Assembly (NCBI GenBank): GCA_963769605.1
Contig: CAVYML010000003.1
Coordinates: 158,305-222,304, forward strand
Source of the DNA: Ignavibacteriota bacterium
GTDB taxonomy: Bacteria > Bacteroidota > Ignavibacteria > UBA10030
DNA: 64,000 nucleotides
Direction: 5' to 3'
The notes beneath the pieces were generated by a model. It saw nothing but the letters and a program-made list of their open reading frames with translations. It made no database searches and was not told the origin of the DNA. The position numbers and the translations under genes were made by a program. Positions 595 through 22,741 of this stretch are shown here, piece after piece. The first letter of the stretch is position 1, and every line of letters starts with the position of its first letter.

Positions 595-625
595 ATTATT
601 CGCAGATATTTGGGATAAAGAAATC

Positions 626-2457: not shown

Positions 2458-2465
2458 GAGGACCT

Positions 2466-3764
2466 ATGAGCTGGATCGATCTCTATAAATCGAAAATTGT
2501 TTCGCTGGAAGATGCTGTTAGTGTTGTGAAATCCGGAGACCGCATCTTTTCAAGCGCCAATGCAGCAACACCGCTCATAACAATGAACGCACTGGCAAAA
2601 CGAGCGAGCGAATTGACGAATGTCGAAATCAACCATCTTCTCCTGATGGGAGAAGATCCGCTGACTAAACCGGGAATGGAAAATCATTTCCATCATAATT
2701 CGCTTTTCGTGGGCCCGGGAGACCGACCGTCGATTGCAGAAGGAGTTTCGGATTACGTTCCTGTTCATCTTTCGGACGTGCCGGGATTGTTCAGGGCCGG
2801 TTACATTTCTTTGGATGTCGCGCTAATCCATGTTTCTCCTCCGGATGCGCACGGCTTTGTGAGCCTGGGAGTTGAATGTGCTGCGACAAAAGCAGCGGCC
2901 GAAACGGCAAAAATTGTAGTCGCTCAGGTCAACGAGCGCATGCCTCGTACTTTGGGAGATGTATTTGTTCCTGTTTCACGGGTTCATAAAATCGTCGAGT
3001 GTTCAGAGCCTCTTTTGGAACTCAAACCGGGGGTTGCAACTGAAGTCGAGGAGAGGATTGCAGATTTTATTGCTCCTTTGATTGAAGACGGCTCAACGCT
3101 GCAATTGGGCATCGGCGGAATTCCCGACGCGGTTCTGAGCCGCATCGACGGTAAGCAGCATCTCGGTATTCATACGGAGATGATTTCCGACGGGGTTATG
3201 AAGGCTGTCGAAAGCGGTATTATTACGAGTTTGAATAAAACACTGCATCCGGGCAAAGTCGTTACGACTTTTGTTATGGGATCACAAAACCTGTACGACT
3301 ACGTTCACAACAATCCGCTCTTTGAGGTGCATCCCTGCGATTATACTAACAATCCGTTCATCATAGCGCAGAATGAAAAGATGGTCGCTATCAATTCTTC
3401 GATCGAAGTCGATATCAGCGGCCAGGTATGTTCCGATTCAATCGGTACAAAAATTTACAGCGGCTTCGGCGGTCAGGTCGATTTTATTCGCGGAGCGGCA
3501 TATTCGAAAGGCGGAAAACCGATTATTGCACTTCCATCAACGACAAAGAACGGTGAATTTTCGAAGATTGTACCGCGTCTGCGAACCGGCGCAGGTGTCG
3601 TTACGACACGCGCAGATGTGCATTATGTCGTTACCGAATATGGAGTCGCATCGCTTCATGGAAAAAATATACATCAAAGGGCCGAGGCTCTTATCGCAAT
3701 AGCACATCCTAAGTTCCGTACGGAACTGGAAAATTACCTTCGAACTATATATAGAGCTGTTTGA
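2466..3764 (+). CDS. acetyl-CoA hydrolase/transferase family protein (4-hydroxybutyrate/succinyl-CoA:acetate CoA-transferase-like)
   Basis: The LQLGIGGIPDAVL motif and overall length match the Cat1/AbfT family. An RBS-like GAGGA precedes the ATG at 2466. Confidence 0.8.
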   Translation: MSWIDLYKSKIVSLEDAVSVVKSGDRIFSSANAATPLITMNALAKRASELTNVEINHLLLMGEDPLTKPGMENHFHHNSLFVGPGDRPSIAEGVSDYVPVHLSDVPGLFRAGYISLDVALIHVSPPDAHGFVSLGVECAATKAAAETAKIVVAQVNERMPRTLGDVFVPVSRVHKIVECSEPLLELKPGVATEVEERIADFIAPLIEDGSTLQLGIGGIPDAVLSRIDGKQHLGIHTEMISDGVMKAVESGIITSLNKTLHPGKVVTTFVMGSQNLYDYVHNNPLFEVHPCDYTNNPFIIAQNEKMVAINSSIEVDISGQVCSDSIGTKIYSGFGGQVDFIRGAAYSKGGKPIIALPSTTKNGEFSKIVPRLRTGAGVVTTRADVHYVVTEYGVASLHGKNIHQRAEALIAIAHPKFRTELENYLRTIYRAV

Positions 3765-4091
3765 AAACGTGGACGATAACTCATCAATCGAAAAAGAAAA
3801 TCACGAATCCGTCTCAAAATAAGACACGAATTTTCTCGATACCAACTTTTCGTGGGCGTCAATAGTTCAAATATTAGATAAATGGCTGAGAGGATAATAA
3901 TCTTGAAAATGGAAAAAATTCTAAAGTTTAAGAGTTATTATTGTGTTATTCAACGCTAACTCATATATTTGATCAATAATTCAACGTTTTATTGATTTTT
4001 ACTTGGCACAGAGCTTGCGCTAACATAATGCCTAATAACAAAATGCGTGTTTATCGAACGGAGTAAGCATTTTTTTTCTACAGAATTCAAA

Positions 4092-6311
4092 ATGAAAAAT
4101 CAAATTCTAACAGTTTTTTTTATAATCGTGTCAGCAGCATCGCATGCAGCAATTGGGCAGACAATAGACGATTGCTTGATGTGCCATGCGGATACATCGC
4201 TGACCATGGATCGTAATGGAAAAAATGTATCCATTTATGCGGATCGGTCCGTTTTACATCGATCTGTGCATGCGAAATTTGTATGCGTTGCCTGTCATAC
4301 CGGCTTCGATCCCCAGAATGTTCCGCATAAAGAAAAGATCACTCCTGTGAATTGTCTGCAATGTCACAGCGATGCTCCGGCAAAACATCCGTTTCATGCC
4401 TCAGAGATGAAAAGTGCGGCGAATCAGTCTTCGCTCCTTGTTCAGTGCAAACAATGCCACGGAACGCATGCTGTTGCGGCAATAAAAAATACGAATGCAA
4501 GTCTTCAAAGCAGGAATATTATCGAAACATGCGGAAAATGTCACGCAGCAGAAAAAGAGCGTTACTCAACTTCCGTTCATGGAAAAGCAGCGGTCGGGGG
4601 AGTCGTTGCTGCTCCCGATTGTGTCTCTTGCCATCAAAATAAAATTACAGGTTTGGCAGGAAGCAGGGATTCGGTCGCAATAAAAATTGCTCAGGAAAAA
4701 ACGTGTTTGTCCTGCCACCTTGATAATCCCGATGTACGCTCGCATATCGGTCTGTCGGCAGTATTTATCGCTGCATACGAAAAAAGCGTCCACGGTTCAG
4801 CTTTATTGAAAGGAAACGCATCTGCCGCCAATTGCGTCGATTGTCACGGCAGCCATTCGATTCAGCGAAGCGATGCTACGGCATCATCGATCAATCGGAA
4901 CAATATTCCCGCAACATGTGCGAAATGTCATGCCGGCATAAAACATGAATACGACGAAAGTATTCATGCAAAAGCCGTCGCAGGCGGGAATATGCAGGCG
5001 CCGGTTTGTACGAATTGTCACGGTGAACATAATATTCTTGCACCAGCAAATCCGGAGTCGCGTGTGGCCGCACAAAATGTTTCCCAGCAAGTCTGCTCCC
5101 CTTGTCATAGTTCGGTTCTTCTTTCAGAAAAATACGGTATTGCCAGCGATAGGTTTAAAACCTATTCTTCAAGCTTTCACGGCTTGGCTGTTCGCGCCGG
5201 TAATGTTGCCGTAGCGAATTGTGCGAGTTGTCATGGCGCCCATAACATAAAACCATCATCCGACTCCACATCATCGGTCAACAAGGCGAATCTTGTTAAG
5301 ACGTGCGGCAAATGTCATCCCGGAGCCAATGAGCGTTTTACGATCGGATCTATCCATGTTACGGCAGCACAAAAAGAAGAACCGCTGATCTATTGGTTTT
5401 CATTATTTTATGTGCTCATGATCGCATCTGTTATCGGCGGGATGTTTCTCCATAATCTTTTGGATTTTTACCGAAAATCGAAACGACAATTACTTATCCG
5501 CCGAGGATTTGAAACAGAAGAGCATTTCGGACACGCATTATATGTGCGAATGACACTCAATGAAAGGATTCAGCATGCAGCATTGATGGTCAGTTTCTTT
5601 ACGCTTGTTTTTACGGGATTTATGCTCCGATATCCCGACGCGTTCTGGGTTGTCTCCATTCGCAGCTTAAGCGAAAGTGTTTTCATGCTGCGCGGTTTGA
5701 TTCACCGTTGTGCAGCGGTTGTTATGGTCTCGGCTTCGCTGTATCATTGTTATTATGTTATCTTCACTAAACGCGGCAAGCAGCTCATCAGGGACCTTTT
5801 TCCCGTCTTGCAAGATTTTACCGATGCAGGAGATGTTTTGAAATATAACCTAGGCTTTTCAAAAACGAAGCCGAAACTCGGGCGGTTCAGCTATATAGAG
5901 AAAAGCGAATATTGGGCGCTCGTATGGGGTGTTGTAGTGATGGGGATAACAGGAATAATTTTATGGTTCGATAATACATTTATGGGATTGTTGACAAAAC
6001 TCGGCTGGGATATTGCCCGCATTATTCACTTTTATGAAGCATGGCTCGCTTTTCTTGCCATTCTTATATGGCACGTTTATTATGTCATTTTCAATCCCGA
6101 TGTTTATCCGATGAATCTTGCCTGGTTGAAAGGCACAATTACAGAAACGGAAATGGGAGAAGAACATTTGCGGGAATTGGAACAGTTGAAACGGCAGAAA
6201 CTTCTCGATGAAGCAACAGTTGTTCCTGTTGATGATGTCGAAAAGGAAAATCAAAAAGATATAAAACAGGTGCCCAAGAAATCACAGAAACACCCGAAGC
6301 TGAGATCATGA
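4092..6311 (+). CDS. fused multiheme cytochrome c (13 CXXCH) and integral-membrane cytochrome b (HydC/FdnI-like), CbcL-like quinol oxidoreductase
   Basis: A signal peptide (MKNQILTVFFIIVSAASHA) is followed by 13 CXXCH motifs in about 430 aa. The C-terminal ~300 aa form a polytopic membrane domain with conserved His residues on the helices, as in the Ni/Fe-hydrogenase/formate dehydrogenase b-type cytochrome subunit. Geobacter CbcL has the same architecture. Confidence 0.8.
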   Translation: MKNQILTVFFIIVSAASHAAIGQTIDDCLMCHADTSLTMDRNGKNVSIYADRSVLHRSVHAKFVCVACHTGFDPQNVPHKEKITPVNCLQCHSDAPAKHPFHASEMKSAANQSSLLVQCKQCHGTHAVAAIKNTNASLQSRNIIETCGKCHAAEKERYSTSVHGKAAVGGVVAAPDCVSCHQNKITGLAGSRDSVAIKIAQEKTCLSCHLDNPDVRSHIGLSAVFIAAYEKSVHGSALLKGNASAANCVDCHGSHSIQRSDATASSINRNNIPATCAKCHAGIKHEYDESIHAKAVAGGNMQAPVCTNCHGEHNILAPANPESRVAAQNVSQQVCSPCHSSVLLSEKYGIASDRFKTYSSSFHGLAVRAGNVAVANCASCHGAHNIKPSSDSTSSVNKANLVKTCGKCHPGANERFTIGSIHVTAAQKEEPLIYWFSLFYVLMIASVIGGMFLHNLLDFYRKSKRQLLIRRGFETEEHFGHALYVRMTLNERIQHAALMVSFFTLVFTGFMLRYPDAFWVVSIRSLSESVFMLRGLIHRCAAVVMVSASLYHCYYVIFTKRGKQLIRDLFPVLQDFTDAGDVLKYNLGFSKTKPKLGRFSYIEKSEYWALVWGVVVMGITGIILWFDNTFMGLLTKLGWDIARIIHFYEAWLAFLAILIWHVYYVIFNPDVYPMNLAWLKGTITETEMGEEHLRELEQLKRQKLLDEATVVPVDDVEKENQKDIKQVPKKSQKHPKLRS

Positions 6312-7801
6312 AAAGATTATTTCCTAAAACATTTTATAATATAACAAGCCTTTACGGCTTTGTTCTTGTGTCGATCAGTTTCGGATTATTCATATTCCTA
6401 TCGATTCTCGATTTCTTTGCCACGGATCAAAAACCGTATATGGGCATCATTACGTTCATAATTCTGCCGGCATTTTTGATAATCGGTTTGGCAATCGGTT
6501 TTTGGGGCGTATGGCGTGAGCATAAACGCAGGAAGCTCGGTTTGCCAATCCATGAACAATTGCCGCGGATCGATCTGAACGACCCAAAGCAGCAGCGGGT
6601 TGTTTTATACACAGGCATCGGAACACTTGTGTTTTTATTCCTTACTGTCTTCGGAAGCTATAAGGCGTATGAATATACGGACTCGGATGCGTTCTGCGGA
6701 ACCACGTGTCACAAGGTAATGAACCCGGAATATACGGCATATCAAAATTCGCCGCATGCCCGTGTCGACTGTGTTAAATGCCACATTGGCCCTGGCGCCG
6801 GATGGTATGTGCGTTCGAAACTCTCAGGCGCATATCAGGTGTATGCGACGTTATTCAACAAATATCCTAAACCCATACCTACGCCGATCGAAAATCTTCG
6901 TCCGGCTCAGGAAACATGCGAACAATGCCATTGGCCTAAACAGTTTTTCAGTGAAAAGCTAAAAAAAAATACATATTTTCTGTCGGATGAAAAGAATACC
7001 CGTTGGACGCTGGATCTTCTTCTTAAAATAGGAGGAGGAAATATTGAAGCAGGCCCGACATCTGGAATTCACTGGCATATGAATATTGCGAATGAATTGA
7101 CGTATATTGCAGACGATACGCAGCGCCAGGTTATTCCATGGATAAAATCAAAACGGGCAGACGGAAGTGTGGTGGTTTATCGCACCGCGGAGAATGCGAT
7201 TTCTGATTCGGCGGTTCAAACAATAAATAAGCGGCGCATGGATTGCATAGATTGCCATAACCGTCCTACTCACATTTACAATCCGCCGGCACAATCGGTG
7301 AACCATATTATGGCACTTGGCTGGATTGATCCGGCGCTTCCGGGCGTGAAAAGCATAGCAATAAAAGCATTGGAAACATCGTATGACACAAAGGAAGCGG
7401 GATGGAATGGTATTAAAAGAACTATCGAAGAATATTATCAAACAAATTATCCTCAGATTGCTGAAAGCCGGAAGGATACAATTGCGCGCGCCATTAAGGA
7501 AATTCAGCGTATCTTCAGCCATAATTATTTTCCCGAGATGCAGGTGAGCTGGAAAAAATTTCCCGACAATCTGGGCCACCTGTATTCACCAGGTTGTTTC
7601 CGGTGTCACGACGGCAAGCATGTGACGGATGACGGAAAAGTATTGTCCCGGGATTGCAATGTCTGCCACACCATTCTTGCACAGCAGTTTGAAAAAGAAG
7701 GATTACGATTGTCGCTCGACGGCATTGAATATCATCACCCTGTGGATATCGGCACTGCATGGAAAGAAATGAATTGCAGCGATTGCCACAACGCTCAATA
7801 G
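6308..7801 (+). CDS. heptaheme membrane-anchored cytochrome c, NapC/NirT family (ImcH-like)
   Basis: Three N-terminal transmembrane helices are followed by seven heme sites. The first site is CGTTCH (CX3CH); the others are CVKCH, CEQCH, CIDCH, CFRCH, CNVCH and CSDCH. Size and topology match ImcH-type inner-membrane quinol dehydrogenases. The gene is translationally coupled to the previous one through an ATGA overlap. Confidence 0.7.
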   Translation: MKRLFPKTFYNITSLYGFVLVSISFGLFIFLSILDFFATDQKPYMGIITFIILPAFLIIGLAIGFWGVWREHKRRKLGLPIHEQLPRIDLNDPKQQRVVLYTGIGTLVFLFLTVFGSYKAYEYTDSDAFCGTTCHKVMNPEYTAYQNSPHARVDCVKCHIGPGAGWYVRSKLSGAYQVYATLFNKYPKPIPTPIENLRPAQETCEQCHWPKQFFSEKLKKNTYFLSDEKNTRWTLDLLLKIGGGNIEAGPTSGIHWHMNIANELTYIADDTQRQVIPWIKSKRADGSVVVYRTAENAISDSAVQTINKRRMDCIDCHNRPTHIYNPPAQSVNHIMALGWIDPALPGVKSIAIKALETSYDTKEAGWNGIKRTIEEYYQTNYPQIAESRKDTIARAIKEIQRIFSHNYFPEMQVSWKKFPDNLGHLYSPGCFRCHDGKHVTDDGKVLSRDCNVCHTILAQQFEKEGLRLSLDGIEYHHPVDIGTAWKEMNCSDCHNAQ

Positions 7802-7822
7802 AATAAAGAAAAAAAGGGATCT

Positions 7823-8278
7823 ATGAATCAAACACCAGAAACTCCTGTCGATCAAAGTAAAAGAGACTTTTTACAGGTGGTCTTAGGCGGAGCGAGTGCG
7901 GCTTTTCTTGCTGCGATTTTATATCCGATCTTCGAATACCTCAAACCGCCGAAGCAGGCAGAAGTGGAAGTCTCGAGCGTGAAAGCCGGAAAGTTGAACG
8001 AGATTGAAAAAGACAGCGGGAAAATCATCAAGTTTGGCAGCAAGCCCGTTATTCTTATCCGTACCGCCAACGATGAGCTGCGGGCATTCTCGGCAACGTG
8101 CACGCATCTGGATTGCACCGTTCAGTACCGTAAAGATTACGGTACAATTTGGTGCGCATGCCATAATGGAAAGTATGATTTAAACGGCCGCAATATTTCC
8201 GGTCCGCCGCCGCGGCCGCTGGATGAATACAGGGTCGTTCTTCAAGGAGACGAAATTCTTATTTCGAAAAAAATATGA
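7823..8278 (+). CDS. Rieske [2Fe-2S] iron-sulfur protein of a cytochrome b/Rieske complex
   Basis: A KRDFL Tat-like motif followed by a transmembrane anchor is present. Rieske boxes CTHLDC and CACHNGKYD are both present. Confidence 0.85.
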
Positions 8279-9348
8279 AGACAATTCTTAAAAGAATGTA
8301 CGACTGGGTTGATGAACGTGTTGAACTCAATGGCCTGGTGGAATATATGGGAAAAAAATATGTTCCTGTGCACCGGCATTCAGTGTGGTACTATTTCGGC
8401 GGTGTCTCGCTCTTTCTGTTCATCATTCAGGTCGTAACAGGAATACTCCTGCTGCTCTATTATAAAAGCGGGGAGGAACTTGCAATCGAAAGCATTCATT
8501 TTATTATGTCGAAAGTGCAATTCGGCTGGCTGATCCGTTCGATCCACAGCTGGACTGCAAATCTGTTTATCCTCTCGGCAATGATTCATATGTTTAGCGT
8601 CTACTTTGAAAAAGCGTACCGCAAGCCGAGGGAAATAACATGGATAACGGGAATGCTTATGTTCTTTGTCCTGCTGGGATTCGGGTTCAGCGGATATTTA
8701 CTGCCATGGAATGAACTCGCATTCTTTGCAACAAAAGTCGGAACAGATATCGCAGGTGTGGTGCCTGTTATCGGCAAACCTTTAATGATCTTCCTGCGCG
8801 GCGGTGATGATGTTACAGGAGCAACTCTTTCCCGGTTTTTTGGGTTCCATGCGGCCGTCCTGCCGGGTATTTTTACGGTTTTTCTGGGAATTCACCTTCT
8901 TCTCGTTCAACGGCAGGGGATGAGCGAGCCGTTTCATTGGAAAAACGACACCGAGCAAAAAACGATGCCGTTTTTTCCGAACTTCCTGCTTCGTGATCTT
9001 TCATTATGGCTGCTGGTCTTGAATCTTCTTGCGATCCTGGCGGTTTTCTTCCCATGGGAATTAGGCAAAAAAGCCGATGCTTTTGCTCCTGCACCTGCAG
9101 GCATTAAGCCGGAATGGTATTTTCTTTATATGTTCCAGACGCTGAAATTTATACCCGGGAAATTATGGGTCCTTGATGGAGAGGTTCTAGGCATCGGATT
9201 ATTTGGCGCCGCAGGAGCGCTTTGGACGCTCGTACCGTTTTGGGACCGGAAAAGTCCCCGCGGTGAACAAAACCGATTCGTCAATTATCTCGGTCTCTTT
9301 GCAGTCATCTATATTATCATTCTCACAATTATAGGGTGGCTGGCATGA
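8275..9348 (+). CDS. cytochrome b (b6/subunit IV fused type)
   Basis: The N-terminal [24 protein letters not shown] motif is typical of cytochrome b. Heme-ligating His residues sit on helices and a PEW-like region is present. The 357 aa length suggests a fused b6 + subunit IV. Confidence 0.85.
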
Positions 9349-10808
9349 AAAAATTCTTTCTCTCATTTATTTCCGCCGCTCTACTTGTTCTCCCATTAAA
9401 AGCACAAAGACAAGATCAATGTTTTGAATGCCATAAAAATGCCGAAGATAATCCATCGAAACTTTTTAACCTTGACATTCATCACCAAAAAGGAATTACA
9501 TGCGCAGGATGCCATGGCGGTAATTCTAAAACGGACGACATGGAACTGGCGATGAGCAAGAAAGCCGGATTCATCGGCAGGCCAAAGGGCGACGACATCT
9601 CCCGCGTTTGCGCTGCATGCCACGGCGACCAAGAGAAGATGAAGTCTTTCGGTTCTTCCCTGCCGACGAATCAGTGGGAAAACCTGCAGTCGAGCGTTCA
9701 TGCCAAACCGGCCCTCAAAGGGAAAGAACATATCGTACAGTGCACGACGTGTCACAATGCACACGGAATTGTTTCTGTAAAAAATGCATGGTCTCCGGTC
9801 TATCCGCTCAACGTTGTAAAGACATGCACTCGATGCCATGCCGATGTTGCCTTTATGCGCTCCTATAATCCGTCACTGCCGGTGGATCAATTGGAAAAAT
9901 ACCGCACGAGCGTTCACGGTGTGCGCAACGGAAAAGGCGATCCGAAAACAGCGCAATGCGCAAGCTGCCATGGCAGTCACGATATACGAGCTGTGAAGGA
10001 CGTGAAATCGAATGTCTATTTTTCAAATTTGCCGGCAACATGCGCCAAGTGTCATTCCAACTCAGTGTACATGAAAGAATATAAAATTCCAGCCGATCAA
10101 TACGAAAAATATGCAAAGAGTGTCCACGGAATTGCAGTGCTGCAAAAACATGACCCCGGTGCGCCTGCCTGTAACAATTGCCACGGAAATCATGGTGCAA
10201 TGCCTCCGGGTATCGAATCGATCTCGCAAGTCTGCGGGACGTGCCATGCACTCAATGCAGAACTGTTTGCATCCAGCCCGCACAAGAAAGCGTTTGAAGA
10301 ACGAAAACTGCCTGAGTGTGAAACCTGCCACAGCAACCATGAAATTGTTGCCGCAACCGATAAACTCCTCGGCACAGATCCGGGCGCAGTGTGCAGCAGA
10401 TGTCACTCTTCGACGCAGAATTCCAACGGATATAATGCGGCAAAAGCTATGCGCGGATTGATCGACACTTTGGAAAGCCGAGAGGGACATGCCAAAACCT
10501 TGGTGAATGATGCAGAACAGAAAGGGATGGAGATAAGCGAAGCAAAATTTAAACTTAGGGATGTCCGGCAAGCTCGGCTGCAATCCAGAACTATGGTTCA
10601 TGCTTTCAATGAAGTGAAGTTCAAAGAAGTGGTCGACATCGGATTGAAAACGGCCGATATGGTCGTATCTGAATCTCAATCTTCAATCGATGAATATTAT
10701 TTTAGAAGAATCGGATTAGCTATTGCAACAATTATCATTACAATTTTAGCCGTATCGCTGTATGCTTTCGTGCGCCGACTTGAGCGGAGGGAAAACCCAA
10801 TAAAATAA
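9345..10808 (+). CDS. undecaheme c-type cytochrome with C-terminal membrane anchor (candidate c subunit of the Rieske/cytochrome b complex)
   Basis: A signal peptide is followed by 11 CXXCH motifs and a C-terminal hydrophobic helix ([21 protein letters not shown]). The ATG overlaps the cytochrome b stop codon (ATGA). Confidence 0.8.
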
Positions 10809-11106
10809 AATTAGAAGTGTTGAATTTATATGCGATGCTAATATTTGGAATTTTTTCCCAAAATTGTGAAAAAATCAAATAAAGGGAAGATTTTAAATGG
10901 ATTGGAATTCAAATATCTTAAATTATCGGCGATTTTATATTAAAACAGAATATCGTGCCTGTTGTAAAAATTGATGTATAATTATTCTACATGTAAAAAA
11001 TTGGCAGGATTTTTGATGCATTTTCTAAATTAAGCTTCACTTATAAAAATACAGAGTATCACATTAAAGGCAAGGAATCTCTCATAAATATTATTAGGAG
11101 GGCCAT

Positions 11107-11622
11107 ATGCGACTTTTCAAATTTCTCGTTGTTGTTTTTGTAATATTCTCAGGGGCAATAAGCGCACAGCATAAATACGTCGGCGTAAAAATATGCAAGA
11201 TGTGCCATCAAACTGAAAAAATGGGAAAACAATTCGATGTTTGGCAAAAAAGTCCCCACGCGCAAGCATTCGATACTTTAAAATCGGCAGCGGCAGAAAA
11301 AATTGCTAAGGAAAAAGGATTAACAAAAGCTGCTTCTGAATCGCCGGAATGTCTCGAATGTCATGCGATTACAGCGGATCCAAAATTGATTGCGGACGGT
11401 GTGCAATGCGAATCGTGCCACGGTGCGGGATCGGATTACAAGAATATGGCAGTAATGAAAGATCATGCTAAAGCCGTCGCGGCAGGTTTGTCGGATTTCA
11501 AAGACAAAGCTGCTATGGAAAAAACATGCAAACAATGCCACAATGAAAAAAGCCCGACAAAAAAAGAATTTAATTTCGATGAGATGTGGGCAAAGATTAA
11601 GCATCCGATTCCCAAAGGTTAA
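11107..11622 (+). CDS. periplasmic tetraheme c-type cytochrome
   Basis: 171 aa with a signal peptide and four CXXCH motifs. A strong AGGAGG RBS lies before the ATG. Confidence 0.8.
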   Translation: MRLFKFLVVVFVIFSGAISAQHKYVGVKICKMCHQTEKMGKQFDVWQKSPHAQAFDTLKSAAAEKIAKEKGLTKAASESPECLECHAITADPKLIADGVQCESCHGAGSDYKNMAVMKDHAKAVAAGLSDFKDKAAMEKTCKQCHNEKSPTKKEFNFDEMWAKIKHPIPKG

Positions 11623-11732
11623 GACGGTTTTCGTTGTGTGTGAATGCCGGTATGTCCGTGCCGGCTTTTGGCGTCACGGTAAGTTATGAGTAAATGATTG
11701 GTGTGTGTCATCAATCGAAAGAAGAGAACGTT

Positions 11733-13049
11733 ATGAAAATCACAACGAGGCTCAATGCCAAATTTTTAGCGTTTGCAGCGGCTGCTGCTTGTTGCTTGTG
11801 CGGATCTGAGGCATTCGGTCAGATGTTCCAAATGCGTTTGGTATCATCTGCCTACGCCTGGCAGCAGCAAGATTCGGCCGGTCAATCGTCGCACCATCTT
11901 TTCGGATATCAAACCGCCCAGATTTCGATTTCGGGAGAGCAGCTTTCCTTTCATACCTATCTTCAGGGCTTTAACGATTTTGCAGGGCCGCTGCAGGATG
12001 AAGGCGAAATGCGTGCGTACAATTTTTATTTAAAATATGCCGGACTTTTTGACGCAGCAGATGTTTCGGTCGGACGCGTTCCGGTTTTTGCCGGTGTGGG
12101 TGTCGGGACGTTGGACGGCGGGATTGCATCGCTTCGCTTGTTCGATACGCAATTGAAATTGACGGGGTACGGAGGATTGCTTCCGCAGGAAGATGATAAA
12201 TTTGAGCTGATCGGAGATAAGCGGCACAATACTATGTTCGGCGGCCAGATCAGCGCAGCTCCTTTCGAGTGGGGCGCTTTCTCCGTCAGTTATATGCGCA
12301 AGAACGAATTGCCGGAATCATATTGGGCCGAACGGGCGCAAGATTCGACCTATGCAATTCAAAACGTAGAAATCACTTCGTCCCCGGCAGCGGAAGAATA
12401 TATCAGCGGAGATGCCAATATCGATTATGACTGGTTCTCAGCTTCTCTGCGCTACGATTATGATATTTTACAGGATCAGATGTCGCGCGAGCAGATTTTT
12501 ACGCGTTTCAGAATTTGCGCTCCTTTCTCGCTCACCGCGGAGTACATCCAGCGAGAACCGCTCCTCGAATATAATTCGATCTTCTGGGTCTTTGCATACA
12601 ACACGCTGATTGAATATGATGCGGGAGTCGAATATACGCTCGACAAGAACATTCAAGTCTACGGACGGTACGGATCCGTTTCATACGGGGACGGAGAAAC
12701 TTCGGATCGAGTGACAATCGGCGGCAATACTAAATACGTGTCTGCCAACATTGCCTGGAATACGGGTTATGGCGGGCAATTAGCTGCAGTTTCAGCTAAT
12801 GCCGGATACCCGCTTCTGAACAATATGCTGACACCTACACTCCTTCTGAGTTATGCACATTATCGCTTGGAGAGCACAGATGCACTGACCGATGCACTCA
12901 GCATCGGGGCGGGAGTCGTGTACCGGCCGATGCCGATGCTTTCTATCGATACGCAAGTGCAATGGCTGACGAATTCCATTTATAGCAACGATCTGCGCCT
13001 GTTTGTCCGGGCCAGCTATTTCTTCAGTCATCAACTAAACATTTTCTAA
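11733..13049 (+). CDS. outer-membrane beta-barrel protein (candidate porin of a porin-cytochrome conduit)
   Basis: The signal peptide is MKITTRLNAKFLAFAAAAACCLCGSEAFGQ. The body has alternating hydrophobic/polar beta-strand periodicity and is rich in G, Y and aromatic residues. The C-terminus ends in Phe (…QLNIF), an OMP beta-barrel signature. No heme motifs are present. Confidence 0.65.
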   Translation: MKITTRLNAKFLAFAAAAACCLCGSEAFGQMFQMRLVSSAYAWQQQDSAGQSSHHLFGYQTAQISISGEQLSFHTYLQGFNDFAGPLQDEGEMRAYNFYLKYAGLFDAADVSVGRVPVFAGVGVGTLDGGIASLRLFDTQLKLTGYGGLLPQEDDKFELIGDKRHNTMFGGQISAAPFEWGAFSVSYMRKNELPESYWAERAQDSTYAIQNVEITSSPAAEEYISGDANIDYDWFSASLRYDYDILQDQMSREQIFTRFRICAPFSLTAEYIQREPLLEYNSIFWVFAYNTLIEYDAGVEYTLDKNIQVYGRYGSVSYGDGETSDRVTIGGNTKYVSANIAWNTGYGGQLAAVSANAGYPLLNNMLTPTLLLSYAHYRLESTDALTDALSIGAGVVYRPMPMLSIDTQVQWLTNSIYSNDLRLFVRASYFFSHQLNIF

Positions 13050-13058
13050 AAGAGTGCC

Positions 13059-14294
13059 ATGATGACCAATACGTACTATACCACAAGGAAACTGAACAGA
13101 CGTTCTGTCGTGTTCGTTGGAGTATTGCTTCTTGCCGCTATCGGGACAGCAAGCACATCGGCATTCTCCGCCGGGGATGGACCTTCGGTTCAGAATAAAA
13201 TTAAATTTAATCATAAGAAGCATATCGATGAAGTGGGAGCGCAATGCATCGACTGTCACACGAATGCCTTGACAAGCACTGCAGCATCTGATAATCTTTT
13301 TGCTCAAATGTCGGCCTGCCGGCCTTGCCACGAAGATGCGCTCCAAACGAATTGTGCATTCTGCCACACAAGCACCGATTCAACGACGTATGCAATTTCG
13401 AATCCTGTACGCGAATTAACCTTTAATCATCAATTGCATGCGGATGGACAAAAAATCGACTGCCAAAAATGTCATACAAATTTAGACAACGACAAGGTTT
13501 CCATAACCGAAAATGTACCGGCAATGAAAACATGTTCTTCATGCCACGATGGTGTAAAGGTAAAAGACGATTGTGCGGTATGTCATACAAATCTTTCTGC
13601 GCTGCGTCCTGCGGGGCATAACCGTACGGATTTTATACGCGAGCATAAATTTGCGGCGCGTGTCAATACTGCGACCTGCGGCGCCTGCCATTCGCAGGAA
13701 ACATGCACAGACTGCCACAATGGATCCGATCTCGTTCAAGTTACGGTCCCGGGAAAAGATATGATTTCTGCTCATTCTCCGCGTATTTCTTCAAACGACC
13801 GCGGCCAAACTATGGTGATCGAGAAAGTGCATGATTTGAATTACCGGTTTACGCATGGCGTCGATGCTCATGCAAAAACTATAGAATGTAAGACATGTCA
13901 CAGTACCGAACAGTTCTGTACGCCGTGCCATCAGGCGGGAGGAAATGTTAATCAGGAAGTCTTTAAACCCGCATCACATTCCATTGCCGGCTTTACGACA
14001 ATCGGTGTCGGATCGGGAGGCGGAGAACATGCGCGGCTTGCGAAGCGCGATATCGAATCGTGTGCGGCTTGCCACAGCGCCGATGGAGCGGATCCGGTCT
14101 GTGTTACATGTCATATGGATCCGGACGGTATAAAAGGAACAAATCCTAAAACCCATGCAATCGGGTTTATGGCAAATCAACACGGACGCTGGCATTCCGA
14201 TCCGGGCGCAAATTGCTACGTGTGTCATACCGACCCGAATGCAAGGCCAATGGGAATTAAAGGGCAGCGGTTTTGCGGGTATTGCCATAATTGA
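13059..14294 (+). CDS. multiheme c-type cytochrome (14 CXXCH in 411 aa)
   Basis: A signal peptide and 14 canonical CXXCH motifs give roughly one heme per 29 aa. Confidence 0.85.
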   Translation: MMTNTYYTTRKLNRRSVVFVGVLLLAAIGTASTSAFSAGDGPSVQNKIKFNHKKHIDEVGAQCIDCHTNALTSTAASDNLFAQMSACRPCHEDALQTNCAFCHTSTDSTTYAISNPVRELTFNHQLHADGQKIDCQKCHTNLDNDKVSITENVPAMKTCSSCHDGVKVKDDCAVCHTNLSALRPAGHNRTDFIREHKFAARVNTATCGACHSQETCTDCHNGSDLVQVTVPGKDMISAHSPRISSNDRGQTMVIEKVHDLNYRFTHGVDAHAKTIECKTCHSTEQFCTPCHQAGGNVNQEVFKPASHSIAGFTTIGVGSGGGEHARLAKRDIESCAACHSADGADPVCVTCHMDPDGIKGTNPKTHAIGFMANQHGRWHSDPGANCYVCHTDPNARPMGIKGQRFCGYCHN

Positions 14295-14309
14295 GAGGAT
14301 GGAACGAGT

Positions 14310-15176
14310 ATGAGAACAAAATATTTTTATTCGATTTTTATACCGACGATCTTGTCACTCTCATGCAGCGATTTGAAGAAGGATTTGCCGACCGCAACTC
14401 CGAGCGGTATTACAGTTCATGAACAAGGATGGACGGACACGTCGTCCGCCAATTTCCACGGAAAATATATCGCAGGTAATAATTACGATATGCGCGGCTG
14501 CCAGCAATGTCACGGCCTTCAATATGACGGCGGCATCTCAGGTGTTTCCTGTATGACCTGCCATACAAATCCGGATGGTCCTGAAAACTGCGCAACCTGT
14601 CACGGCGTGCCGCCGCCGCCCGATCGTTATGGTAATACTTCCAATGGAGCAATCGGAGTCGGCGCACATGTCATTCATTTCACGGGCAACGGCAATTACA
14701 CGACGCACAGCATGACGTGCTCAATGTGTCATTATATGCCGACAAGCATCTATGATCCCAACCATATAAATGCGACGGGACGCGCTTATGTGGTTTTCAA
14801 TGATCCGTTGGCAACGGTGAAAAGCAACGGAGTCACACCGGCGCCGGCCTATAATCTGAATGCCGTCACATGTGCAAATACATTTTGCCATGGAGCATGG
14901 CAGCTGTCTAAAGCGGTAGCGCCGGACACGACTGTGTATACGGCTGCCGTAATGAGCGGCACGTATGATGCACCGGTATGGACAGGAGGCTCAACGCAAA
15001 CAACTTGCGGCACAAATTGCCACACTAATCCGCCGGCGGGACATAAGGCTTCAGCCTTAACAAACTGTTATACCTGTCATGGCGATGTCATAGATGCAAC
15101 GGGAAAAATAAAGAATAAGACGAAACATATGAACGGAATGATCGATCTTGTGAGCGGAGCAGCGCCATTTCGATAG
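14310..15176 (+). CDS. lipoprotein multiheme c-type cytochrome (7 hemes, paired-CXXCH type with atypical CX3CH and CX4CH sites)
   Basis: A signal peptide ending in LSLSC suggests a lipobox. Five sites are canonical CXXCH (CQQCH, CMTCH, CATCH, CSMCH, CYTCH). Two are atypical, CANTFCH (CX4CH) and CGTNCH (CX3CH). Confidence 0.75.
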   Translation: MRTKYFYSIFIPTILSLSCSDLKKDLPTATPSGITVHEQGWTDTSSANFHGKYIAGNNYDMRGCQQCHGLQYDGGISGVSCMTCHTNPDGPENCATCHGVPPPPDRYGNTSNGAIGVGAHVIHFTGNGNYTTHSMTCSMCHYMPTSIYDPNHINATGRAYVVFNDPLATVKSNGVTPAPAYNLNAVTCANTFCHGAWQLSKAVAPDTTVYTAAVMSGTYDAPVWTGGSTQTTCGTNCHTNPPAGHKASALTNCYTCHGDVIDATGKIKNKTKHMNGMIDLVSGAAPFR

Positions 15177-15234
15177 ACAATGAAAATAATTTAAATCCAA
15201 TTATATCCTAAATAATAATAGATGAGGTAAGTCT

Positions 15235-16515
15235 ATGCTGGAAAGAAAAAAAATTACTTTTTTGCTTTGTATTATCACTCTTGCAGTGATTACAGGGTTA
15301 TGGGGAGGCTGCCGCGGTCCAATGGGCCCAACCGGTCCGAGCGGACAAAATGCAAATGCATCGGATCTTGAAGGTTTTGCCCCCGGTATTATATGTGCAA
15401 ACTGTCATAACCAGGATTTTAATCCTACATATGATATTCTTGCAAAAGTCATTGAATACGATGCTTCCATTCATTTTGCGGGAGGCGAAGATATTCAAAA
15501 TACAACTACATGCGCAGGCTGCCATACCAATGAAGGTTTTGTGGATCGCTATAATCATGGTTTTGCCAACGAGTCGTTTAATTTACACGCCCCATCCGGC
15601 CCCTTGGCAAGCCAAGCCTATCCGCAGGCTTCTCCTCCGGGATGCTTTACATGCCACATGCCGCATTCACGAGGCAATTTCACGGTTCGTGATTCCGGTA
15701 AAGTAAACATTTACACGCTTCTTGCCAACCAGTCGACGAAGGTTTGGAACAGCACTTCTGCTTCAAACTTATGCGTCAAGTGTCACCAACCTCGTATGAC
15801 ATCGACCCCCTTTACATCGACCCCGTATTCCTGGCAGCCGGATCCTTCACAAACAAGTGCAACCGACACCGCACGGATTTATACATCAAGATGGAATAAT
15901 CACGTCTCCGGCGAAATGACACAGACGCTGCTTGGTTTTGGCGGTTTCGAGTTTACCGGATATTCAGGTTATACAAATTCACAACATTCGACCTATATGA
16001 ATGGCAATCCTATTGGCTGCGAACAGTGTCACATGGCCACAGTCAACAGCGTCGATCTGGACGGCGGACATACGTTTACAGTAAAAGATACAAGCGCCTA
16101 TTCAATGTCTCCCTCGTATAACGTCAACGGATGCAATGTAAGCGGCTGTCATTCAGGCCTTGCTGCCACCGCAGCGGATGCCCATTGGAGCAAGCGCACG
16201 GTAATTATCACAGAGCTAAATCAGCTTGGAAAACTGATGATGGATACGAACATCACAAGGAAGTGGATGCCTGCCGGTAAAGCTGCTCCATGGGCTTCAT
16301 ACACAGTGACCGGCATCGATACTGTTTGGTCGCAGGTAAGCAAGGTTTACGGCAGCTCGATAGGCGCATCTAATCCTCTCGTTATCGTTCCGGCAGCAAA
16401 AGCGGGTGCACTATGGAATCTTCAACAAATCTATAACGATAAGAGCCACGGCATACACAATTACGAATATTTTAAGGCCTTGTTGGATAATTCAATCGCT
16501 GAGCTTAATAAGTAA
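15235..16515 (+). CDS. multiheme c-type cytochrome, probable lipoprotein (6 hemes including one CX4CH)
   Basis: A signal peptide with a possible lipobox (LWGGC) is followed by a Gly-Pro-rich linker (GPMGPTGPSGQ). Five heme sites are canonical (CANCH, CAGCH, CFTCH, CVKCH, CEQCH). One is atypical, CNVSGCH (CX4CH). Confidence 0.75.
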   Translation: MLERKKITFLLCIITLAVITGLWGGCRGPMGPTGPSGQNANASDLEGFAPGIICANCHNQDFNPTYDILAKVIEYDASIHFAGGEDIQNTTTCAGCHTNEGFVDRYNHGFANESFNLHAPSGPLASQAYPQASPPGCFTCHMPHSRGNFTVRDSGKVNIYTLLANQSTKVWNSTSASNLCVKCHQPRMTSTPFTSTPYSWQPDPSQTSATDTARIYTSRWNNHVSGEMTQTLLGFGGFEFTGYSGYTNSQHSTYMNGNPIGCEQCHMATVNSVDLDGGHTFTVKDTSAYSMSPSYNVNGCNVSGCHSGLAATAADAHWSKRTVIITELNQLGKLMMDTNITRKWMPAGKAAPWASYTVTGIDTVWSQVSKVYGSSIGASNPLVIVPAAKAGALWNLQQIYNDKSHGIHNYEYFKALLDNSIAELNK

Positions 16516-16557
16516 AAAAAATTAAAACGTACCTAAGCCTTTTAGATGCTTTCTCTT

Positions 16558-16596
16558 CGTGTGCGGAAGGCCCATCTTCCGCACACGTGTTTTATC
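16558..16596 (+). terminator. rho-independent terminator ending the cytochrome operon
   Basis: A 12 bp perfect stem (cgtgtgcggaag / cttccgcacacg) with a 6 nt loop is followed by tgttttat, 43 bp after the stop codon at 16515. Confidence 0.7.
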
Positions 16597-16684
16597 AAAT
16601 ACGCTTCATCTCTTTGAAACCTTCGGAAAATTCCCGATGTTCTATATCAAAGATCATTTATTCATGTCATAAAAGGAAGATAGC

Positions 16685-18934
16685 ATGATTGGCTCAATTG
16701 TTGTCTGGATCGCATTTGTATCGGCAGTTGCTTCGGGATGTCTCTATTATGTTTCAATAAAAAACAACAGTCTTCGCTTCATGGCGCAGAGCGCATATTT
16801 TACGGCAGCAATAGGTACATTATTAGCATCGGCTTTGCTGATGCTGTTCATTATTCAGCATCGATTCGAGTTCAACTATATAACGAATTACAGTTCGCGA
16901 GACCTTCCTTTTTCGCTGCTTATCACGACATTTTGGGCCGGGCAGGAAGGCAGTTTTATGTTATGGGCATTGTTTGCATCGCTCATCGGTTTGGTCCTTC
17001 AGCGGTACAGCATCCGGAAAAATATCGAAGCGGAGGTGATGACAACATACAGCATAGTTCTCGGTTTTCTTCTTCTGCTTATTTCGATCAAATCTCCCTT
17101 TGAATATATCTGGCAGGCTCAGGCAGGTGTAGAAAAAGGATTTGTGCCGCCGGATGGTCACGGCCTGAACCCGCTGCTTCAAAATTTTTGGATGATTATT
17201 CATCCTCCTATATTGTTTCTCGGATTTTCTTCTCTGGCTGTTCCGTTTGTGCTCGCCGTTGCCGCTTTAGGACAAAGAAATTATAAGAATTGGATGAACT
17301 CGGCTGTTCCGTGGGTGCTTTTCAGCGCTCTTGCCCTTGGTGCCGGGCTGATGCTCGGCGGATATTGGGCTTATGGTGTTCTTGGCTGGGGCGGCTGGTG
17401 GGGCTGGGATCCGGTGGAAAATTCTTCTCTCGTTCCATGGATAGTCACAGTCATACTCGTTCATACGATGCTTATTCAAATAATTACGGGAAAATTGGTA
17501 CGCACAAATTTTGTTCTGGCCATTCTGGCATATCTTCTTGTCGTTTACAGCACATTCCTTACGCGGAGCGGAATTCTTGCCAATTCTTCAGTGCATTCAT
17601 TTGTGGATCCCGGCTCTTTTGCATACGGCCTGCTCGTTCTTTGGCTCGCCGTTGTCGTCGTTGGAGGATTCGGTATGCTCTGGCGTCGGCGGAATGAACT
17701 GCATGCAGACCAGCCGCCGATGGGATTATTTACGCGTGAGTCGATTCTCTCGTTCGCTCTTCTCGTTCTCGGAGCTTGTGCAGGCATCATTCTATTCGGT
17801 ACGAGCATGCCGCTCTTTTCAAAGTCCGCACTTGAGCCTGCCTTTTACGATAAAACTACATTACCCCTTGCAGTGCTCCTGACGATTCTCCTGGGAGGCA
17901 GTCTTATCATTCAATGGAATCTGGAAGACAGGCGCTCTCTTTTAAAAAATCTTTTGATACCACTTTGTATTGCAGCTGCCGGAACGGCTGTGTGTATCGC
18001 AATTGGGCTGCGCGATTTTGGTGCAGGGGCGCTTGTCTTTTCTTCTTTCTTTGCCCTTTGCATAACTCTGAAACACGGGTATCGCATTCTTCGTCAACAG
18101 CCGAAATTTATCGGCGGCTCACTTTCGCATATAGGACTTGCGATTTTACTCCTGGGAATCATAGGTTCAGGTCGATATGGCGTCAAACAATCGGTTTCAC
18201 TTTCACAAAACCAGCCGCTGAATGTCATGGGATATGCGTTGACATATTTGGGAGACAGCCTTTCTCAAGAAGGAAAGACGCTCTTGAATGTTCGTGCCGA
18301 AAAGAACGGTTCTTTTAGCATCTTAAGACCGGTAATGTATGAAAGTTCATTTAATAACAGTATGATGCGCAACCCGGATTATCTCAGCTCTTTCACGAAT
18401 AATCTTTATATCGAGCCGGTTTCTTTGGAACGGCCAGATGATGAAGGCACCCGGAGCAATATGATAGAACTCATAAAGGGTGTTCCATGGAACTTTGGCC
18501 CGATGACTGTAACATTTGTGCGTTTTCAATTAGAAGAGCAGAACATGGAAAACATGCGGCTGGGACATAGTGCTACAATCGGTGCTGTGCTGGAGGTTAA
18601 AATCGATTCAACCGTTGAGGAACTTGTTCCTTTGACGACGTTTAAAGCTCCTCCGGGTGAGCCTGAAATGAAAGCAGCCTATACTAAAAGCGGTCATCTC
18701 GGTTTCCAATTAGTTAAATTAAATGTTTCGGGTGCATCCGAAAAAACGAAAATAATCGTTCAACTGGTTGGCCCGATGATGGCAGGTACAAGCAGGGCTC
18801 AATCGGATATTCTGGTAGCAGAAGTCAGCATCAAACCGTTCATGGGCTTTATCTGGGCAGGCGCCTTCTTTATTTTGTGCGGGATTATTGCTGCTTTTAT
18901 CAGGCGTATGCAAAAGCCTCTTAAGCTTTCATAA
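16685..18934 (+). CDS. ccmF: cytochrome c-type biogenesis heme lyase, CcmF/NrfE/CycK family
   Basis: A WWD-domain signature GWGGWWGWDPVENSS is present. The N-terminal FWAGQEGSFMLW block and the DGHGLNPLLQNFWMIIHPPILFLGF block align with the E. coli CcmF motifs. About 15 transmembrane segments are predicted. Length is 749 aa. Confidence 0.85.
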   Translation: MIGSIVVWIAFVSAVASGCLYYVSIKNNSLRFMAQSAYFTAAIGTLLASALLMLFIIQHRFEFNYITNYSSRDLPFSLLITTFWAGQEGSFMLWALFASLIGLVLQRYSIRKNIEAEVMTTYSIVLGFLLLLISIKSPFEYIWQAQAGVEKGFVPPDGHGLNPLLQNFWMIIHPPILFLGFSSLAVPFVLAVAALGQRNYKNWMNSAVPWVLFSALALGAGLMLGGYWAYGVLGWGGWWGWDPVENSSLVPWIVTVILVHTMLIQIITGKLVRTNFVLAILAYLLVVYSTFLTRSGILANSSVHSFVDPGSFAYGLLVLWLAVVVVGGFGMLWRRRNELHADQPPMGLFTRESILSFALLVLGACAGIILFGTSMPLFSKSALEPAFYDKTTLPLAVLLTILLGGSLIIQWNLEDRRSLLKNLLIPLCIAAAGTAVCIAIGLRDFGAGALVFSSFFALCITLKHGYRILRQQPKFIGGSLSHIGLAILLLGIIGSGRYGVKQSVSLSQNQPLNVMGYALTYLGDSLSQEGKTLLNVRAEKNGSFSILRPVMYESSFNNSMMRNPDYLSSFTNNLYIEPVSLERPDDEGTRSNMIELIKGVPWNFGPMTVTFVRFQLEEQNMENMRLGHSATIGAVLEVKIDSTVEELVPLTTFKAPPGEPEMKAAYTKSGHLGFQLVKLNVSGASEKTKIIVQLVGPMMAGTSRAQSDILVAEVSIKPFMGFIWAGAFFILCGIIAAFIRRMQKPLKLS

Positions 18935-22427: not shown

Positions 22428-22518
22428 AAGATATTCCTTTACATGATAGAGTAATCCGGAATTTTAAAAAGCACAGATCTTTATCATTGGGGAATATAAG
22501 AAGCGCGCAAGAAAAAAG

Positions 22519-22574: not shown

Positions 22575-22741
22575 TGGGGTTGAGGGGGTTATTTTTCACT
22601 TATTGGGAAGAAACGGCCAAATCCGGTCATTTTCGCACGAAACGGAATTTCGCATTGTTTAAAACATTGGGAGTATTTTTTCGATATGATGTTTTTGAAA
22701 AAACAAAAAAAGTTTAATTATGAAAAGGATTATTCCATTTA

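Follow-up and report, generated by a model that had tools for sequence, protein, structure and literature searches.

The window, a 64,000 nucleotide (nt) stretch of the contig CAVYML010000003.1 from an Ignavibacteriota bacterium, carries three co-directional plus-strand genes at positions 7823–10808, each of which overlaps the next in the list of open reading frames (ORFs). In order, these encode a Rieske protein, a cytochrome b, and a c-type cytochrome with 11 CXXCH motifs. The triad is read here as a menaquinol-oxidising Rieske/cytochrome b complex with a C-terminally anchored undecaheme subunit instead of cytochrome c1 or f, a reading that is given a probability of roughly 0.6. Gene anatomy, cofactor motifs, conservation and family structure are direct observations. 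The anatomy is not a chance arrangement, because heme count, C-terminal anchor and start/stop overlap recur across the fetched Ignavibacteriota loci. An earlier sequence-only reading listed these ORFs, a 357 amino acid (aa) cytochrome b, the overlaps, 11 hemes and a single C-terminal transmembrane (TM) helix, and the ORF list together with motif and hydropathy scans agrees with it on every one of these points. The domain and hidden Markov model check that it suggested returns Pfam/NCBIfam matches to Rieske, to Cytochrome_B plus Cytochrom_B_C, and to multiheme domains.

The stop of the Rieske gene and the start of the cytochrome b gene overlap by 4 nt. At the second junction there are two possible starts for the undecaheme gene, GTG at 9336 and ATG at 9345. 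With the ATG the overlap with the cytochrome b stop is again 4 nt, the TGA lying inside ATGA, and with the GTG it is 13 nt. ATG 9345 is the more plausible start.

The N-terminus of the Rieske protein shows a Tat-like (twin-arginine translocation) sequence, SKRDFL, and a TM anchor at residues 19–37. Both cluster boxes are present with the disulfide cysteines, CTHLDC at position 93 and CACH at position 111. The Pfam Rieske score is 50.2 bits and a TM_PetC match falls under the cutoff. A PDB sequence search gives Chlorobaculum tepidum 8hn2 as the closest solved Rieske (66 bits), with Kuenenia 9rk4 next. Box II reads CACHNGKY and has a Gly at the position of the potential-raising Ser. In high-potential Rieske proteins this Ser adds a hydrogen bond, and C. 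tepidum, with a Rieske at +160 mV, has Ala there (PMC10172866). Because the box II Ser is replaced, as in C. tepidum, the window Rieske is predicted to hold a low-potential, menaquinol-type cluster.

The cytochrome b is b6-like in its N-terminal half and subunit-IV-like in its C-terminal half. Pfam gives 164 bits for Cytochrome_B and 39 bits for Cytochrom_B_C. With NCBIfam, 'cytochrome b6' scores 236 bits (cutoff 325) and the second-best match is ExtP with 199.8 bits (cutoff 290); subunit IV is also matched, and a fused ExtQ-like region scores 22.5 bits against a cutoff of 150. The heme ligands are His91/His105, with 13 residues between them, and His192/His207, with the b6-type spacing of 14, and a PEWY motif is found at position 279. 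A hydropathy scan shows six helices and helix B, placed by eye, makes seven. These features and the domain matches to both halves bear out the proposal of the sequence-only reading that the protein is a fusion of b6 and subunit IV. The N-terminal half also scores best on PDB b6 chains, with 205 bits versus approximately 172 for the whole bc1 cytochrome b. The protein contains no Cys, and the position of the CxGG motif reads YFGG; lacking Cys, it is not expected to carry heme ci. In short, its sequence points to a fused b6-like/subunit-IV-like protein of the kind described for Chlorobi, where cytochrome b is long and has PEWY and a GG pair without Cys.

The undecaheme protein begins with a sequence that resembles a cleavable signal peptide, and a motif scan of it shows no CXXCK, CX3CH or CX4CH. 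Signal peptide and C-terminal TM helix together give it the predicted topology of cytochrome c1 or f, a point in favour of the proposed subunit. Between the last heme motif and the membrane lies a non-heme helical region. An AlphaFold2 model (mean predicted local distance difference test score, pLDDT, of 76) places helices at residues 360–392, 398–419 and 423–483, the last continuing into the TM helix. The pLDDT in this C-terminal region is mostly ~80–96, with 68 at residues 411–420. The helical domain with its invariant His is the constant hallmark of the whole family.

Conserved His residues outside the heme motifs are found in the family alignment at positions 46, 191, 212, 261, 283, 332 and 419 (at least 91%) and 313 (70%), and conserved Met residues at 171, 243 and 395 (87–96%). 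His119 and His140, situated in an insertion at residues 82–153, are invariant within the 11-heme clade. Because the ten invariant non-motif His of this clade and the conserved Met would suffice as distal ligands, all 11 hemes may be six-coordinate, at least one of them possibly His/Met. A full distal ligand set without CXXCK supports a role as a wire and not as an enzyme.

The 82–153 insertion is absent from 21/21 sequences with fewer than 11 hemes (alignment A2). It aligns without gaps to residues 154–225, with 27/72 identical positions and z = 15.7 against shuffles. The 11-heme form thus consists of the 9-heme core with one 72-aa di-heme unit duplicated in tandem. BLASTP (27% identity over ~360 aa, E = 1e-25) further shows the heme domain to be paralogous to that in a CbcL-like protein encoded nearby; therefore one wire module is joined to two different quinone-reactive membrane modules. 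A PDB sequence search with the undecaheme protein gives nothing at E ≤ 0.01.

A locus scan, restricted to a single genome for each species, gave 30 loci, of which 28 belong to metagenome-assembled genomes (MAGs) labelled Ignavibacteriota or 'Bacteroidota'. The nearest loci are 86–88% identical, a fen MAG among them. Wherever the fetched Ignavibacteriota sequence extends upstream of the multiheme gene (25 loci), the Rieske gene and/or the cytochrome b gene is its immediate neighbour on that side, and the triad is kept in 29/29 loci of any origin with such sequence. Eleven CXXCH and a hydrophobic C-terminus are found in 28/28 Ignavibacteriota homologues. The overlap between cytochrome b stop and multiheme start is 4 or 13 nt in each of the 25 Ignavibacteriota loci that include the junction. 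Synteny, i.e. a multiheme gene right after Rieske and an unsplit cytochrome b, is seen in L001–L029 and L031–L034. Identities to the window proteins co-vary over 29 loci, with a Spearman coefficient of 0.95 for cytochrome b versus multiheme protein and 0.92 for Rieske, and this co-varying divergence fits co-inheritance of the three proteins.

The flanks of the triad are variable. Many loci have CbcL-like and ImcH-like genes on the upstream side and tetraheme, porin and multiheme genes on the downstream side. In nine Ignavibacteriota loci (L008, L009, L015, L019–L021, L023, L025 and L027) the triad is found without porin-cytochrome genes in the fetched sequence. An ORF of ~545 aa with an N-terminal coiled-coil-like segment is found directly 3′ of the 11-heme gene in L015, L019 and L023–L025, with no porin-cytochrome genes following. 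The two copies tested, L019:11635–13284 and L025:11694–13337, match DUF2339, a predicted membrane protein. This ORF could encode a further partner or subunit of the complex.

For a search of 1.84 billion representatives (50% identity clusters), the non-heme C-terminal stretch of 133 residues served as the query. This anchor domain matches 364 clusters at E ≤ 1e-3; under the stricter threshold of E ≤ 1e-10 there are 102. Full-length matches with a signal peptide mostly have 9 hemes (~417–447 aa), and 6-, 7-, 8- and 11-heme as well as extended 9-heme versions are also found. Matches of ~145 aa, which could be taken for stand-alone C-terminal domain proteins, were rejected as probable truncated gene calls, their first residues lying within the final heme motif. 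By cluster look-up, Candidatus Zixiibacteriota is represented in one 9-heme cluster, a result on sequence membership only. When the 9-heme alignment (A2) was used as a profile, 11-heme Ignavibacteriota sequences dominated the matches and few 9-heme names were recovered. Heme number in the family is 6–18, with 9, 11 and 18 confirmed adjoining Rieske/cytochrome b.

Loci from outside the Ignavibacteriota show the same arrangement. L029, from Neomarinimicrobiota, has a triad with a 9-CXXCH protein, situated among housekeeping genes. In the metagenome contig L033 a 9-heme protein follows Rieske and a 362-aa cytochrome b, with putative conduit genes upstream. In L034, also a metagenome contig, an 18-heme, 759-aa protein (8001–10280) with the same C-terminal anchor follows Rieske and a 366-aa cytochrome b, and no porin-cytochrome genes are nearby. 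The triad thus appears to be a self-contained module, being found among housekeeping genes in L029 and away from porin-cytochrome genes in L034. In L029 a 308-aa EB_dh (ethylbenzene-dehydrogenase-like) protein with one CXXCH-type motif (CATMCH) is encoded just upstream of the Rieske gene (L029:7101–8027). L034 has a gene for a 260-aa class-I-like cytochrome c ~500 nt downstream of the 18-heme gene, and a protein related to its 18-heme member comes from 'bacterium BMS3Bbin04'.

Apart from the cytochromes of the triad and of the cluster around it, the 64 kb window contains no further CXXCH-bearing ORF of 80 aa or more, and no monoheme c-type, c1 or f candidate. The proposal of the sequence-only reading that the multiheme protein takes the place of c1/f is therefore well supported by gene position, topology, this lack of a monoheme gene and co-inheritance across at least two named phyla, while a physical association is a prediction from these features.

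The triad is part of a run of plus-strand genes at 4047–16515, consisting of the CbcL-like and ImcH-like genes, the triad, and genes for a tetraheme cytochrome, a porin, a 14-heme cytochrome and two lipoprotein cytochromes, with ~59–62 c-type heme sites in all (Table 1). This local setting supports the proposed reading: it resembles a cluster for extracellular electron transfer that is closed by one strong terminator. The CbcL-like protein has the CbcL architecture of an N-terminal multiheme domain and a C-terminal di-heme cytochrome b, with 13 hemes and not 9; its membrane domain scores 49.7 bits for Ni_hydr_CYTB and 53.7 bits for FdnI. Translation probably begins not at the listed GTG (4047) but at an ATG in the same frame at 4092, from which the protein has a typical signal peptide, MKNQILTVFFIIVSAASHA. 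The ImcH-like protein scores 62 bits for NrfH and 57.5 bits for Cytochrom_NNT. Its three N-terminal hydrophobic stretches, judged by eye, agree with the published description of ImcH (three N-terminal TM helices, a NapC/NirT/NrfH domain and ~7 heme motifs). ImcH has been reported in Ignavibacteriae in a survey of quinol oxidases/quinone reductases for extracellular electron transfer.

Table 1. Features of the triad and of the neighbouring cytochrome cluster (window positions)
Feature	Position	Strand	Remarks
CbcL-like protein	4047..6311	+	13-CXXCH periplasmic domain fused to FdnI/HydC-type di-heme cytochrome b membrane domain
ImcH-like protein	6308..7801	+	NrfH/NapC-family domain; 7 heme motifs (1 CX3CH + 6 CXXCH)
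Rieske [2Fe-2S] subunit	7823..8278	+	151 aa; Pfam, motifs, PDB sequence search
Unsplit cytochrome b	8275..9348	+	357 aa; Pfam/NCBIfam, motifs, PDB sequence search
Undecaheme c-type cytochrome	9345..10808	+	487 aa; signal peptide, 11 CXXCH, helical C-terminal domain, one TM anchor
11-heme-specific insertion	9588..9803	+	residues 82–153; hemes 3 and 4 with His119, His140
Non-heme C-terminal helical domain	10407..10715	+	three long helices; invariant His419, near-invariant Met395
C-terminal TM anchor	10716..10772	+	residues 458–476, only C-terminal hydrophobic helix; then basic RRLERR (predicted cytoplasmic)
Soluble periplasmic tetraheme cytochrome, c554 family	11107..11622	+	candidate shuttle; 3′ of 11-heme gene in many loci
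Heme-free putative outer-membrane porin	11694..13049	+	ends ...NIF; weak outer-membrane protein beta-barrel match
14-heme cytochrome	13059..14294	+	signal peptide; porin-inserted or periplasmic component
Lipoprotein cytochrome	14310..15176	+	LSLSC lipobox; 5 CXXCH + CX3CH + CX4CH; Geobacter CxxxxCH/CxxCH domain
Lipoprotein cytochrome	15235..16515	+	WGGC lipobox; 5 CXXCH + CX4CH; MtrC/MtrF domain II/IV-like
Terminator-like hairpin	16558..16587	+	13-bp stem, T-rich tail; only strong one on the plus strand of the cluster
CcmF/NrfE-like cytochrome c assembly protein	16685..18934	+	749 aa; syntenic with cluster in many loci

The hairpin is a possible end of the transcription unit. In the window the CcmF/NrfE-like gene lies just past this hairpin, and in L008 and L009 it comes immediately 3′ of the 11-heme gene; its product may be a dedicated heme lyase. 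A sigma-70 promoter scan stayed at background (35 found versus 29 expected), the consensus being ill-suited to Bacteroidota-type promoters. Domain scans of 4047–18934 show no NAD(P) oxidoreductase gene.

Other parts of the window were also scanned. On the plus strand upstream of the cytochrome cluster (25–3764) are a PFOR (pyruvate:ferredoxin oxidoreductase) gamma-like domain, an alanine dehydrogenase/PNT-family protein and an acetyl-CoA hydrolase/transferase; synteny of the last two genes with the cluster extends to the closest relatives, L001, L002, L004, L005 and L013. On the minus strand, ~12 kb from the ~60-heme cluster, the region 28335–36426 encodes a HemY-like/flavin amine-oxidase (28335–29762), a ferrochelatase (30327–31295) and a glutamyl-tRNA reductase (34293–35579), and looks like a heme-biosynthesis cluster, judged from these three scanned genes. 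Between 24000 and 28000 the G+C content goes down to ~0.38, and a DDE transposase (25967–27457) lies beside minus-strand two-component regulator genes (20319–24180). Possibly this segment was inserted at the border of the respiratory region. A plus-strand gene at 46530–49706 encodes a 1058-aa Type ISP restriction-modification enzyme with N6_Mtase and a Type_ISP_C specificity domain. A low-G+C block (0.34–0.38) contains a 1392-aa hybrid two-component regulator (Reg_prop/Y_Y_Y/HisKA/REC/AraC) on the minus strand at 50047–54225, and at 55265–62242 (plus strand) two large proteins with type-IX-secretion sorting tails (Por_Secre_tail), which fits a host of the Fibrobacteres–Chlorobi–Bacteroidetes (FCB) group.

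From the genes of the triad we infer a physical complex with an entry heme, a direction of electron flow and a set of partners, as follows. Quinol would be oxidised at the PEWY-type Qo site. One electron would pass via hemes bL and bH in a Q cycle without heme ci, and the second would go to the low-potential, menaquinone-type Rieske cluster. The mobile Rieske head would then reduce the membrane-proximal heme of the undecaheme subunit, an entry heme that the conserved helical domain, together with the TM helix, would hold close to the complex. The helical domain probably gives His419, and perhaps Met395, as axial ligands. Electrons would then travel along the heme chain to periplasmic acceptors, the likely ones in this genome being the c554-type tetraheme cytochrome encoded next to the triad and the outer-membrane conduit of porin and multihemes. 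The triad would in this case be an exit from the quinone pool that generates proton-motive force, beside the ImcH-like and CbcL-like quinol oxidases.

Several points weigh against this scheme. Typical bis-His multihemes sit below the potential of a menaquinone-type Rieske (~+100 to +160 mV); ImcH, for example, titrates at −358 to −150 mV. Because bis-His multihemes usually lie below the Rieske potential, downhill transfer requires at least one heme of unusually high potential. A His/Met entry heme would, hypothetically, solve this thermodynamic problem. If the Q cycle does work, the triad route would suit only high-potential acceptors, and the ImcH-like and CbcL-like proteins could, by analogy with Geobacter, serve lower-potential ones. 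Co-varying divergence would be shown by any linked genes that are vertically co-inherited. Foldseek of the undecaheme model against the PDB gives no informative match: no E value falls under 0.9, and the best-ranked entries are generic helical proteins aligned to the C-terminal helices. The case that the undecaheme protein belongs to the core is a case made from genes, and an unlinked c-type partner might be encoded elsewhere in the genome, beyond the 64 kb window, as c-556 is in green sulfur bacteria. Lastly, 12 loci, L029 and L034 included, are without porin-cytochrome genes within the fetched sequence. Because of these loci, extracellular electron transfer does not appear to be a general link of the triad or its defining partner. 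The sequence-only reading had the multiheme protein hand electrons to downstream periplasmic and outer-membrane cytochromes; this holds up as a prediction at the window locus and fails as a general trait. Coupling to extracellular electron transfer would then be locus-specific.

The main rival keeps the same assembly and reverses its role. Electrons would enter from extracellular Fe(II) or other donors and be passed by the 11-heme subunit to a Rieske/cytochrome b complex working backwards, which would reduce menaquinone uphill, or the assembly would serve as a branch point toward a terminal oxidase. Multiheme wires are intrinsically bidirectional and sequence fixes no direction. CbcL/MtoC/MtrH homologues form one family in the survey cited above, and the analogous cluster of Zixibacteria RBG-1 (MtrAB-like, multihemes, PetAB) was read as Fe(II) oxidation by Castelle et al. 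(2013) (PMC3903129). However, that interpretation was based on the absence of surface cytochromes in RBG-1, whereas two of the cytochromes encoded by the window cluster are surface lipoproteins, one with a Geobacter Omc-like domain and the other with an MtrC-like one. ImcH and CbcL in Geobacter are quinol oxidases of Fe(III)/electrode reduction, and no terminal oxidase or Cyc2-type gene is seen among the window ORFs scanned. Electron uptake is considered unlikely.

The 11-heme protein might instead be a co-transcribed but separate redox partner or electron store tethered to the membrane, with a core that has no fixed c subunit or an unlinked one. The Chlorobi petCB unit has no c-type gene and its partner is unlinked (PMC10172866), and the window Rieske and cytochrome b are Chlorobi-like. 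Caldithrix has a Rieske/cytochrome b pair without a c1 gene that was proposed to reduce soluble multihemes directly, and docking of the 11-heme protein is here a prediction from genes. But the start of the 11-heme gene runs into the cytochrome b stop at every Ignavibacteriota junction fetched, the helical and TM domain is constant while the hemes vary from 6 to 18, a pattern expected of a docking module, and anammox multiheme subunits co-migrate with their complex, in which their TM helices have been modelled (PMC12954380). A loosely associated partner is thus quite improbable, and an undecaheme subunit of the complex is preferred.

It is very improbable that the 11-heme protein is a catalytic enzyme supplied by the core, of a type that reduces nitrite, hydroxylamine or sulfite: some homologues are named 'ammonia-forming cytochrome c nitrite reductase subunit c552' at NCBI and have weak precomputed PF02335 matches, the best multiheme Foldseek match is MccA, and one Kuenenia complex includes an octaheme enzyme like hydroxylamine oxidoreductase (PMC12954380), but the MccA match is non-significant (E > 0.9), CXXCK and other atypical motifs are absent, the conserved His and Met can six-coordinate every heme, and the protein is built of repeated di-heme wire units common to the CbcL-like protein. 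An identity as nitrite reductase was rejected, with 17.8 bits for NrfA in NCBIfam against a cutoff of 595 and no CXXCK.

A design in which Rieske/cytochrome b is associated with multihemes is already described, in Geobacter (ExtMNOPQS), Kuenenia and Zixibacteria RBG-1. The triad itself was not found described in the limited set of literature searched, which is absence of evidence only. New here are a widespread 6–18-heme family with a helical anchor in common, the way it has grown by duplicating di-heme units and its paralogy with CbcL-type wires, and the co-location in Ignavibacteriota of the triad with two other quinol oxidases and an outer-membrane conduit. A wider proposal is an FCB-wide Q-cycle family in which the helical anchor docks a 6–18-heme wire onto a Chlorobi-like core and lends a His or Met ligand to a high-potential entry heme, the triad being, in Ignavibacteriota, the third and only proton-motive 'gear' of the operon; taken as a whole this is tentative and rather doubtful.

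How menaquinone-based Rieske/cytochrome b complexes run a Q cycle and yet feed multihemes is an open bioenergetic question, and the Geobacter and anammox cases are still argued largely from gene clusters and models. The triad family offers a simple and widespread test case, with three genes, an unsplit cytochrome b, no heme ci and no extra reductase, and natural 9-, 11- and 18-heme versions that share one anchor. The apparent operon of triad, two quinol oxidases and conduit makes potential-dependent 'gears' testable outside Geobacter, in bacteria with their nearest relatives among fen MAGs. If such gears exist, a cell in extracellular respiration could pick its exit from the quinone pool by the potential of the acceptor. 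Two cultured Ignavibacteria have been reported to be without Rieske/cytochrome b complexes, I. album having only a GPWY cytochrome b fused to a c7 domain, and the view of Ignavibacteria drawn from these two species needs revising.

Compared with known systems, the triad has the traits of a bc-type core, with Rieske ligand boxes and anchor, four His for bL/bH and a Qo motif; activity is predicted. It shares with b6f in the strict sense the helix-D spacing of 14 and seven helices, but not split genes, the heme ci/cn Cys or cytochrome f. From bc1 it differs in having no c1-type gene in the window, a helix-D spacing of 14 and not 13 residues, and a cytochrome b that is not of the 8-helix type. Geobacter CbcL and CbcBA likewise join a multiheme domain in the periplasm to a b-type module in the membrane, and CbcA is a multiheme with a single C-terminal TM helix that is paired with a separate cytochrome b subunit. 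However, their b subunits are FdnI/HydC-type di-heme proteins, with no Rieske and no Q cycle.

The Chlorobi system of C. tepidum is similar in its Rieske (8hn2), in an unsplit cytochrome b with PEWY, conserved GG and no heme-ci cysteine, and in being a low-potential menaquinol system with a membrane-anchored c-type partner instead of c1/f. The traits of the Chlorobi/NC10/Acidobacteria clade, a long PEWY cytochrome b, GG without Cys and a low-potential Rieske, are present in the window by feature comparison, not by a tree. But the Chlorobi partner is the monoheme c-556, which is encoded elsewhere and feeds the photosynthetic reaction centre (PMC10172866), whereas the window has an 11-heme partner translationally coupled to cytochrome b in a non-phototroph.

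In Zixibacteria RBG-1, also an FCB-group bacterium, PetAB belongs to a porin-cytochrome gene cluster that also encodes multihemes of the inner membrane and the periplasm (Castelle et al. 2013, PMC3903129). That cluster differs in its MtrA/MtrB homologues, two monoheme cytochromes and lack of surface cytochromes, and in its reading as Fe(II) oxidation.

In Geobacter sulfurreducens, GSU2930–2937 (the ExtMNOPQS 'bc complex') encodes the Rieske ExtO, cytochrome b as ExtP/ExtQ, and cytochromes with 10 and 12 hemes. The complex was suggested to oxidise quinol and to let electrons out toward extracellular acceptors, possibly with a gain in proton-motive force (PMC2825233, PMC5877670). As in the window, Rieske and cytochrome b are encoded with multihemes next to a porin-like gene. 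However, the Geobacter cytochrome b is split, a selenoprotein cytochrome and a rhodanese are part of the cluster, and the window cytochrome b stays under the ExtP equivalog cutoff. By gene numbering ExtM and ExtN are on the opposite side of the Rieske gene from cytochrome b, whereas the window 11-heme gene follows cytochrome b, and its product gives no ExtN/M-type NCBIfam match.

In Kuenenia stuttgartiensis (Kuste4569–4574 and Kustd1480–1485) TM-anchored hexa- and octaheme cytochromes replace cytochrome f and co-migrate with the complex (PMC12954380). By analogy these provide an experimental precedent for a multiheme in place of cytochrome f. They have a b6-like Rieske/cytochrome b core, and one multiheme subunit has long alpha-helices near the Rieske, but they also have a split b6 with a 5-helix subunit IV, heme cN, an NAD(P) oxidoreductase subunit and a Rieske above +300 mV (PMC12954380). 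The window triad differs in its unsplit Cys-free cytochrome b, the absence of such a reductase gene, the low-potential Rieske signature and the 11 hemes; the TM-anchored multiheme is the one anammox feature that it shares, by analogy. Thus the triad is predicted to work like the b6f, bc1, anammox and Ext systems but is a distinct sub-family, the nearest multihemes being compared by description, and it is marked by a C-terminal three-helix domain with an invariant His, one TM helix, and a gene placed directly after Rieske and an unsplit cytochrome b.

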